Positions 32,928 through 33,998 of a DNA stretch of 41,292 bases are shown here, in pieces. The translations under genes were made by a program, and so were the position numbers. Origin of the DNA: a virus (Duplodnaviria; Heunggongvirae; Uroviricota; Caudoviricetes); the IMG/VR virus record IMGVR_UViG_2718217862_000001, one strand, 5' to 3'. Below the pieces are notes generated by a model that was given only the letters and a program-made list of their open reading frames with translations, searched no databases and had not been told where the DNA came from. Position 1 is the stretch's first letter; each line of letters opens with the position of its first letter.

Positions 32928-33998
32928 TTACCCCCTGAAGCCCGGCGGAATTTCGTTATCCGGTTCAGAAATATGATTCACACAACGCTGGTTGTTCGTG
33001 CCGCTTACCGGGAGCAGCCAGGGGTTTTCAAAATTCCGGTCCGGTCCAAAAAACGTCGTCGCTCGCTGAACAAATTCCGTTCCCGTTTTCCCGGTAGCCG
33101 CAAGATATCTTGCGTAACGCCTCACGCCATCCAGCATGGCCTCTGGTGGCACCCCCTCGCGTAATCTGGCTTTCCAGGCACTGAAAGCGGATTTCTTCGG
33201 GTTTGCCCCGGCACGCAACGGGTATTCCCGCCAGACCTGTTCGAACACATCAGGATAATCCACTCGTCCCACAGGCTGCCCGGTGTTTTCCGGGACTACC
33301 CGATCGGCTTCCCGCTGAATGGCGGAATCGGCTTCAGGCTGCTGAAGTTGGTGTGATTGCTCCTGCCTTGCGGTCATCACCTGCTGCACAGCGCCCGAAT
33401 CGGCTTTCAGCGCATACGCTGAATCGGCTTCCGGTGTCGTGCCTGCGGGCTGGCCAGGAGTGACGGTCTGAACATCCCCTGCCTGGTTCGTGGCGTTTTT
33501 TACGCCATGGACCATAGTGTTTTGATCTTCTTGATCTGTATCTTTATCTGTATCTTTATCTGTCGTGACTCGTCGTGACATGTGCGTGACATTTCGTGAC
33601 TCGCCGTGACAATCGCCATTTTGTTCCCGCTTTCTTTCCCTCTCTCGCTGCGCCCTCTTGCGCTCTGCCGGAGATTTTGCGGTTTGCGAAATATTGCCGT
33701 TGTCCTCTTTCAGCACCTGGCGTTTTTCCCATCCAGTGATTAAATCACCATCAAGTACCCGCCCCTGCATCGTCTGCAAAATTGAATCAATTACCTCTTC
33801 TGTCACGTCGAGCGCACTTGCCAAATCTTCTGTCGTGACATCAATGTGACCTCGCGTGACATTTCGTGACGCGCTCACCAGGAGGTGGATATACACTGCC
33901 ATCACTGTTGCAATTGGCTGCCCTGACACCCTGGCAATTGTTCGCCACTTAGGGTCATTTGGCATGTCATGCCATAATCTGAGCCAGGCGTTAGCCAT
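32928..33998 (-). CDS. Replication initiation protein (phage replisome organizer, O-like)
   Basis: N-terminus ANAWLRLWHDMPNDPKWR resembles recalled replisome-organizer N-domain; iteron clusters inside the gene; position after cro/YdaT. Confidence 0.65.
   Translation of the reverse strand: MANAWLRLWHDMPNDPKWRTIARVSGQPIATVMAVYIHLLVSASRNVTRGHIDVTTEDLASALDVTEEVIDSILQTMQGRVLDGDLITGWEKRQVLKEDNGNISQTAKSPAERKRAQRERERKREQNGDCHGESRNVTHMSRRVTTDKDTDKDTDQEDQNTMVHGVKNATNQAGDVQTVTPGQPAGTTPEADSAYALKADSGAVQQVMTARQEQSHQLQQPEADSAIQREADRVVPENTGQPVGRVDYPDVFEQVWREYPLRAGANPKKSAFSAWKARLREGVPPEAMLDGVRRYARYLAATGKTGTEFVQRATTFFGPDRNFENPWLLPVSGTNNQRCVNHISEPDNEIPPGFRG
33563..33609. repeat. Iteron cluster 1: five CGTGAC direct repeats at ~10-bp spacing (candidate ori)
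   Basis: CGTGAC at 33563, 33573, 33584, 33594, 33604; preceded by ATCTGTATCTTT x2. Confidence 0.55.
33834..33870. repeat. Iteron cluster 2: four (C/T)GTGAC repeats at 10-11-bp spacing
   Basis: Repeats at 33834, 33845, 33855, 33865; shares 12-mer ACATTTCGTGAC with cluster 1. Confidence 0.5.

Follow-up and report, generated by a model that had tools for sequence, protein, structure and literature searches.

The 41,292-nucleotide (nt) viral sequence IMGVR_UViG_2718217862_000001, hereafter called the window, contains a lambdoid prophage locus in reverse orientation, in which the gene of a replication initiator ("replisome organizer") carries two clusters of the hexamer CGTGAC. Read on the coding strand, the hexamer is GTCACG. 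The upstream cluster (array A) lies in the region coding for the N-terminal domain, together with one inverted copy of the motif. The downstream cluster (array B) sits midway through the gene and is followed by an A/T-rich tract of hexamer repeats. Positions of all features are given in Table 1. With a probability of about three in four, judging from the sequence, the region is a phage replication origin written into the very gene that encodes its initiator.

Array B consists of five exact copies of CGTGAC on the + strand, found by motif search to start at 33564, 33574, 33585, 33595 and 33605, with spacings of 10, 11, 10 and 10 base pairs (bp). A preliminary description of this DNA had listed five copies at ~10-bp spacing and two copies of ATCTGTATCTTT before them. 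Both elements are there, but the coordinates of the five-copy array, given as 33563–33609, were one base off. The two ATCTGTATCTTT units (33534–33545 and 33546–33557) are continued by a half unit to 33563, which adjoins the array, and repeat-family analysis delineated three 12-bp units in this stretch. The second cluster was correctly placed at 33834–33870, 270 bp away from the first, start to start, as against ~270 bp in the description. It had been presented as four further copies. Three are exact (33834, 33855 and 33865, + strand) and the fourth is a five-of-six match (TGTGAC, 33845–33850). The single inverted copy was absent from the description, which rightly put both clusters inside the coding sequence of the replication initiator.

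Over both strands of the whole window, CGTGAC occurs 23 times, against 18.8 expected, and nine of these 23 copies are packed into 307 bp. With the background rate of the motif outside the region, the probability of at least five copies in 47 bp is ~1e-12, and that of at least eight copies in 307 bp is ~1e-14. The motif search returned no further cluster in the 41-kb window, and no other candidate origin was seen there.

Table 1. Features of the initiator gene, of the surrounding prophage locus and of the compared phage (aa, amino acids; ORF, open reading frame; Stx, Shiga toxin)
Feature	Position	Strand	Description
Replication initiator ("replisome organizer") gene	32928–34004	-	358 aa as maximal ORF; phrog_3729
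N-terminal winged-helix domain coding region (model)	33714–34004	-	aa 1–97; presumed iteron-binding domain
Iteron array A (putative)	33834–33870	-	GTCACG on coding strand, gene nt 135, 145, (155 = GTCACA), 166
Array A product	aa 45–57 (A-SRNVTRGHIDVT)	-	end of a helix and loop preceding helix 2 (winged-helix model)
Inverted iteron copy	33802–33807	+	CGTGAC on coding strand, gene nt 198–203
Iteron array B (putative)	33564–33610	-	five exact GTCACG, gene nt 395, 405, 415, 426, 436
Array B product	aa 132–147	-	disordered linker; frames CH-G, SR, VT
A/T-rich hexamer-repeat tract	33519–33563	-	coding strand ACAGATAAAGATACAGATAAAGATACAGATCAAGAAGATCAAAAC, peptide TDKDTDKDTDQEDQN; candidate DNA-unwinding element
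Imperfect palindrome	33484–33514	.	13-nt arms, 85% complementary, 5-nt spacer; just past the A/T-rich tract
C-terminal module	32928–33527	-	aa 160–358; exchangeable between initiator families
cI-like repressor	34813–35451	+	
Cro-like (P22-Cro-like)	34479–34769	-	
cII/YdaT-like	34070–34567	-	
DUF977/Ren-like	32465–32887		
Zinc-ribbon protein	32051–32464		
MokW/hok-like ORF	30528–30740		
HNH endonuclease	29022–30080		
RusA	28641–29021		
Q	27823–28644		
Phage 75/02 Stx initiator (L120)	NC_029120.1 10267–11355		

The selection acting on the repeats was examined in homologous genes from 38 genomes, one for each species, whose guanine-plus-cytosine (GC) contents range from 33 to 69%. The first 80 viral loci are 98–100% identical to the window and were uninformative on divergence. 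The codon alignment comprised 22 non-redundant diverged genes from genomes of 34–69% GC. On the coding strand, GTCACG is read in three frames, as nGT-CAC-Gnn (G/C-H), nnG-TCA-CGn (S-R) and GTC-ACG (V-T), so that the iterons are not a repeat of the protein. Relative synonymous codon entropy was 0.16 over the 14 columns overlapping iterons and 0.80 over the 54 other conserved columns (Mann–Whitney, p = 6e-7). Synonymous sites of the other conserved amino acids are near saturation in the same genes. Within the iterons, valine is encoded by GTC in 22 of 22 genes at two positions, threonine by ACG in 22 and 21 of 22, glycine by GGT in 22 of 22, histidine by CAC in 21 of 21, and serine by TCA in 21 of 22. 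The pair GTC ACG is retained in all 22 genes, even at 34% GC. Position counts delimited an asymmetric core of 6 bp with weak flanks. Counting the motif at helical phase, as the preliminary description had proposed, revealed 10–11 bp phasing in the window and in the family, with 82 neighbouring pairs spaced by 10 bp and 23 by 11 bp. Together, the three frames, the frozen synonymous sites and the phasing establish that the iterons are under purifying selection at the level of the DNA and not of the protein. The spacing is what binding sites arrayed along one face of the DNA duplex would look like.

Both arrays are found at matching gene positions in GTCACG-type genes from some 27 gamma- and betaproteobacterial species, with hosts that include Enterobacterales, Pseudomonas, Bordetella, Chromobacterium, Acidovorax, Stenotrophomonas and Entomomonas. 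These genes have three or four copies at gene nt ~117–166 and two to five at nt ~370–460, and only 0–3 copies of GTCACG in the flanking 5 kb. The inverted copy is present at the matching position in about 15 of the 27 loci. Two other sub-families carry different hexamers, GTAACG in Pantoea, Enterobacter, Marinobacter and Sphingomonas, and (C)GAACGC in four other genomes, and the hexamer of each sub-family switches jointly in arrays A and B. This co-variation was quantified on a set enlarged by 160 viral contigs, found with two sub-family proteins, by seeking the best helically phased hexamer de novo in each array separately. The same hexamer was returned for both arrays in 54 of 67 non-redundant genes, and most of the remaining pairs match at the level of a 5-mer. 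The motif class tracks the sub-family of the initiator and not the host, the hosts spanning several orders.

Copy number ranges from two to nine per array and shifts by in-frame insertions or deletions, of about 10 or 21 bp in array B. In array B, the window and loci P0036 and P0045 are longer by seven residues (21 bp, two iterons), and Escherichia albertii is longer by seven residues in array A. Among near-identical viral loci, 80 of 81 have three copies in array A and five in array B. An extreme case was L171 (IMG/VR contig 2563366853_000009), with six phased GTCACG in array A and nine in array B. The distance between the arrays varies from 249 to 270 bp in steps of three codons, and no strict helical phasing between them was found. 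A few lineages are without array A and retain a reduced array B with the A/T-rich tract; array B and the tract thus look like the core of the element, and array A like an accessory. In two loci, L116 (a Serratia metagenome-assembled genome, MAG) and L118 (Pantoea sp.), the initiators are longer (397 and 434 aa), a segment is inserted after the N-terminal domain, ACTACG/CTACGTAG repeats replace GTCACG in the linker DNA, and array A is absent.

The A/T-rich tract has a GC fraction of 0.36. No 40-mer in the gene is less stable, its value being -44.7 kcal/mol and the mean of the window -57.1 kcal/mol. Only 0.3% of the 40-mers in the 41-kb window are weaker. Nearly all of the 38 homologous loci that were inspected have two bases and then AGATAAAGATA(A/C)AGAT... 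after the final iteron of array B, and the (GATAAA/GATACA)n tract is maintained in loci from genomes of 66–69% GC. The tract encodes the peptide TDKDKDKD with the codons GAT (20 of 20), AAA (18 of 19) and GAT (17 of 19). This runs counter to the codon bias of the same genes outside the tract, where aspartate is mostly encoded by GAC and lysine often by AAG. The tract is the obvious candidate for a DNA-unwinding element (DUE). It contains two GATC (Dam) sites 9 bp apart (33524–33536, TTGATCTTCTTGATCTGT); in the interval 33300–34100, the only other GATC is at 33302.

Just past the tract, the imperfect palindrome listed in Table 1 is a possible third element of the origin, a weak lead for which a mild enrichment was found across the family. 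Hairpin-capable repeats occur 25–60 nt beyond the last iteron with a mean best stem of 6.0 versus 5.2 (p = 9e-4), and phage 75/02 Stx has a related palindrome. Stems of 7–11 bp were noted at this site in loci L083, L090, L098, L099, L091, L093 and L094.

The initiator matches phrog_3729 ("replication initiation protein") from residue 3 to 358, over profile positions 1–356 of 356 (E = 6.9e-257). Its N-terminal domain matches PHROG "replisome organizer" families weakly (E about 1e-4 to 1e-6). No Pfam family was hit by the whole protein at E ≤ 0.01. Up to E = 10, only HTH_Crp_2, DFF-C and Phage_rep_org_N appeared, all sub-threshold; the latter (PF09681, residues 7–79, E = 0.11) scored 13.0 bits, below the gathering cut-off of 23.3. 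Translation probably starts at the ATG at 33998, which AAGAGG precedes, and the homologues begin with MANxWLRLW.

An AlphaFold2 model was built on 62 homologues. The N-terminal domain is modelled as a winged helix, with block-mean predicted local distance difference test (pLDDT) scores of 83–97 over residues 11–90. It consists of three helices (residues 4–16, 18–27 and 31–47), a loop (48–57), two further helices (58–65 and 69–79) and a hairpin (80–90). A basic helix is modelled at residues 112–129, and residues 131–170 are disordered (pLDDT below 50). The loop encoded by array A is modelled as structured (mean pLDDT 83–86 over residues 41–60). The segment to which it belongs is unique in the domain in that it varies in length (10 to ~40 residues) and in content between sub-families. 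The inverted copy encodes a D-V-T turn between helices 2 and 3, and array B together with the tract encodes the disordered linker. As the arrays coincide with a variable loop and a disordered linker, the cis-acting element appears to have been placed where the protein tolerates it, as in lambda O.

The helix at the usual position of the recognition helix is acidic and near-identical between iteron classes, and it does not clearly co-vary with the class of the motif. The loops encoded by array A are SRNVTRGHxDVT in the GTCACG class, SNATERGRTQN in the GAACGC class and QNVTRDENGVT in the GTAACG class, all rich in Arg, Asn, Thr and His, and the rest of the N-terminal domain is almost identical between classes. 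It is conceivable, if very doubtful, that the nucleotides of array A are both sites for the initiator and the code for the loop that reads the hexamer, which would make a self-referential specificity module. A single mutation would then alter the site and its reader together.

The C-terminal module is 64% identical to aa 169–362 of the Shigella phage 75/02 Stx protein, whereas the N-terminal halves are unrelated, and the mosaic junction falls directly after the A/T-rich tract (aa 160). Across 37 loci, only the N-terminal domain is conserved; the C-terminal domain was found in three, the DUF977 gene in one, the cII-like gene in three and the Cro gene in two. As only the N-terminal domain travels with the arrays while the C-terminal domain is swapped, the N-terminal domain and the origin form one evolutionary module and the C-terminal domain another. 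The latter matches PHROG families annotated as "DnaD-like helicase loader" and "primosomal protein", and its last 24 aa (32928–33002, ...ISEPDNEIPPGFRG) weakly match the extreme C-terminus of DnaT (NF002770, E = 7e-4). It is presumed that this module recruits the host helicase-loading machinery. A tail of the form [IL]SxPDxxIPxGFRG recurs on homologues with otherwise unrelated C-terminal domains and may serve a replication protein of the host as a short docking motif.

The gene order of the locus is integrase, RecE-like exonuclease, cI-like, P22-Cro-like, cII/YdaT-like, initiator, DUF977/Ren-like, small ORFs, HNH, RusA and Q. This is the lambdoid early-right order, and the initiator gene hence occupies the position of lambda O. 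No gene for a helicase, helicase loader or primase (P-, DnaC- or DnaB-like) was found in the replication module. There was no Rfam match at E ≤ 1 in 32800–34300, and the relaxed DnaA box TT[AT]TNCACA had no match on either strand in 32900–34100. The cII/YdaT-like and Cro-like ORFs overlap by 89 nt as listed (window 34070–34769), most likely because the start codon of the cII-like ORF was called too far upstream.

Of 5426 complete E. coli genomes, 2078 (38%) contain the module segment at an identity of at least 80%, usually with the gene annotated as "hypothetical protein". Near-identical copies of the enterobacterial or betaproteobacterial gene in records assigned to Staphylococcus saprophyticus, an Anaerolineaceae MAG and a Collinsella MAG (P0044, L103 and L119) are probably due to contamination or mis-binning.

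The working of the proposed origin can be outlined as follows. Monomers of the N-terminal domain would bind the asymmetric GTCACG sites, which, spaced by 10–11 bp, would all face the same side of the helix. Assembly of the initiator on array B would open the adjoining (GATAAA/GATACA)n tract, and the exchangeable C-terminal domain would bring in the helicase machinery of the host, since the module encodes neither a helicase nor a loader. Array A, some 230–270 bp upstream, and the inverted site may serve as an accessory array, adding binding capacity, bridging to array B, or giving the nucleoprotein complex stability or a loop. Alternatively, array A may raise the local concentration of the initiator.

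A purely regulatory role of the arrays has to be weighed against initiation. The initiator might bind them mainly for control, by autorepression, as a transcriptional roadblock, or by titration or handcuffing as at incA of P1 and incC of F, with unwinding taking place elsewhere. Plasmid systems do employ secondary iteron arrays in this way, and the presence of two separate arrays in one gene, one of them inside the coding region of a folded domain and dispensable in some lineages, would suit such a function. However, array B is joined to a weak-duplex tract in nearly all loci examined, a hallmark of initiation sites, and the 41-kb window offers neither a second motif cluster nor another candidate origin where unwinding could occur. 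A function confined to control is therefore unlikely. The lack of clear co-variation between the recognition helix and the motif class leaves room for another reader of the motif, be it a different DNA-binding protein of the phage or the host, or a factor binding GUCACG in the mRNA. This is very improbable. In the 37 loci, the arrays are not accompanied by any conserved neighbouring gene, by which neighbouring gene products were ruled out as binders, and the motif class follows the initiator sub-family despite hosts from several orders. As for a reader of RNA, an inverted copy at a conserved position and phasing at 10–11 bp fit duplex DNA, and no Rfam match was obtained.

The encoded peptides (SRNVTRGHxDVT, ESRNVTTDKD) are invariant or nearly so in the family, and the repeats could for that reason be regarded as the by-product of a protein motif or amino-acid repeat and as functionless at the level of the DNA. 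This explanation is hardly tenable. A protein-repeat artefact is ruled out by the use of three frames (S-R, V-T and G/C-H) and by synonymous freezing that is restricted to iteron codons and keeps GTC ACG in all 22 genes, down to a GC content of 34%. Moreover, the arrays encode parts of the protein that are variable (the loop) or disordered (the linker), and in loci L094 and L096 the peptide is altered (DCD) at the inverted copy while GTGAC is retained.

The reading as an origin within the initiator gene has experimentally established precedents in lambda, Stx phages and SPP1. The origins of lambda and of Stx phages lie in the middle of gene O, and in Stx-phage O genes two extra iterons add 13 residues (PMC7466680). 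The window resembles them in having the putative origin in mid-initiator gene, at the same place of the early-right operon downstream of cro and cII, with direct repeats that putatively bind the initiator and an A/T-rich tract downstream. Here too the segment encoded by the origin is a linker to which additional iterons add residues, and the N-terminal domain with the origin constitutes a specificity module separate from an exchangeable C-terminal domain. The analogy with the lambda origin drawn in the preliminary description thus holds for the logic of an intragenic origin with direct repeats and an A/T-rich tract, but not for the initiator family, the form of the iterons or the layout in two arrays. 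The initiator is not of the Phage_rep_O family, to which it has no match. Lambda iterons are about 19 bp long, have internal symmetry and are bound by dimers. The iterons of the window, with an asymmetric 6-bp core every 10–11 bp, lack the ~19-bp dyad and the spacing of about two helical turns. The window also differs by its second array in the coding region of the folded N-terminal domain, by the inverted copy, and by the lack of a P-like or other helicase-loader gene.

In the Bacillus phage SPP1, oriL lies in gene 38 and combines direct repeats with an A/T-rich DUE (PMC6316719). The window shares with it the location of these two elements within a replisome-organizer gene. Its N-terminal domain has a sub-threshold match to Phage_rep_org_N, as noted above, by which membership in the family of G38P is not established at the sequence level. 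SPP1 has a loader (gp39) and a helicase (gp40) of its own and a distant second origin, oriR, whereas in the window a single gene carries both arrays, at a distance of 270 bp, and helicase genes are absent. Several phased direct repeats bound by a winged-helix initiator and adjoining an A/T-rich DUE are also features of theta-replicating plasmids (P1, F, pPS10, R6K) and of Vibrio chromosome II; in the window, the arrays, the modelled N-terminal domain and the candidate DUE would correspond to them. P1 and F likewise have a second iteron array nearby. Plasmid iterons are 17–22 bp long, spaced by about 22 bp and intergenic. The window departs from this arrangement with a core of 6 bp, a period of one helical turn and a location wholly within coding sequence.

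The Shigella phage 75/02 Stx ("Eru4" module) shares the C-terminal module from aa 160 onward, at the identity given above. It also has a two-part layout with an unrelated motif, GAAGGGGCTTC, present twice in the region coding for the N-terminal domain and in two copies ~230 bp downstream. The copies in the linker are followed by a purine-rich hexamer repeat, (GAACAG)n. The differences are an N-terminal domain unrelated in sequence, downstream copies inverted relative to the upstream ones, and a DnaC-like loader gene that follows the initiator. Since 75/02 has a two-part repeat of its own, the intragenic layout in two arrays seems not to be confined to one family and may be more general.

The N-terminal domain was found by tblastn in only 25 of 50,697 phage records. 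None of these is a classical, experimentally studied lambdoid phage, so that no known origin can be transferred by homology. No published description of this type of origin was found in the literature on replisome organizers and iterons, on GTCACG or on non-lambdoid Stx modules, and both papers on the Eru types describe no origin. The "iterons" of PMC2647930 belong to the oriV of a genomic island and are unrelated.

The principle of an origin within the initiator gene is already textbook knowledge; the variant in the window is undescribed, very common and unusually clean. It provides a precise candidate origin for a module carried by prophages of 38% of complete E. coli genomes and by those of many other Proteobacteria, in which current annotation gives "hypothetical protein" or "phage replisome organizer" and leaves the origin unmarked. 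A minimal replicon could be made from a segment of 400 bp and a single gene, and prophages could be typed by iteron class alongside the Eru scheme for Stx phages. The absence of genes for a helicase or a loader suggests that the host helicase is recruited by way of one protein. The three iteron classes on near-identical N-terminal domains offer a compact system for the evolution of specificity between initiator and origin. The locus is also a natural case of a cis-acting DNA element that dictates an invariant peptide in a folded domain, where the apparent constraint on the protein is a constraint on the DNA.
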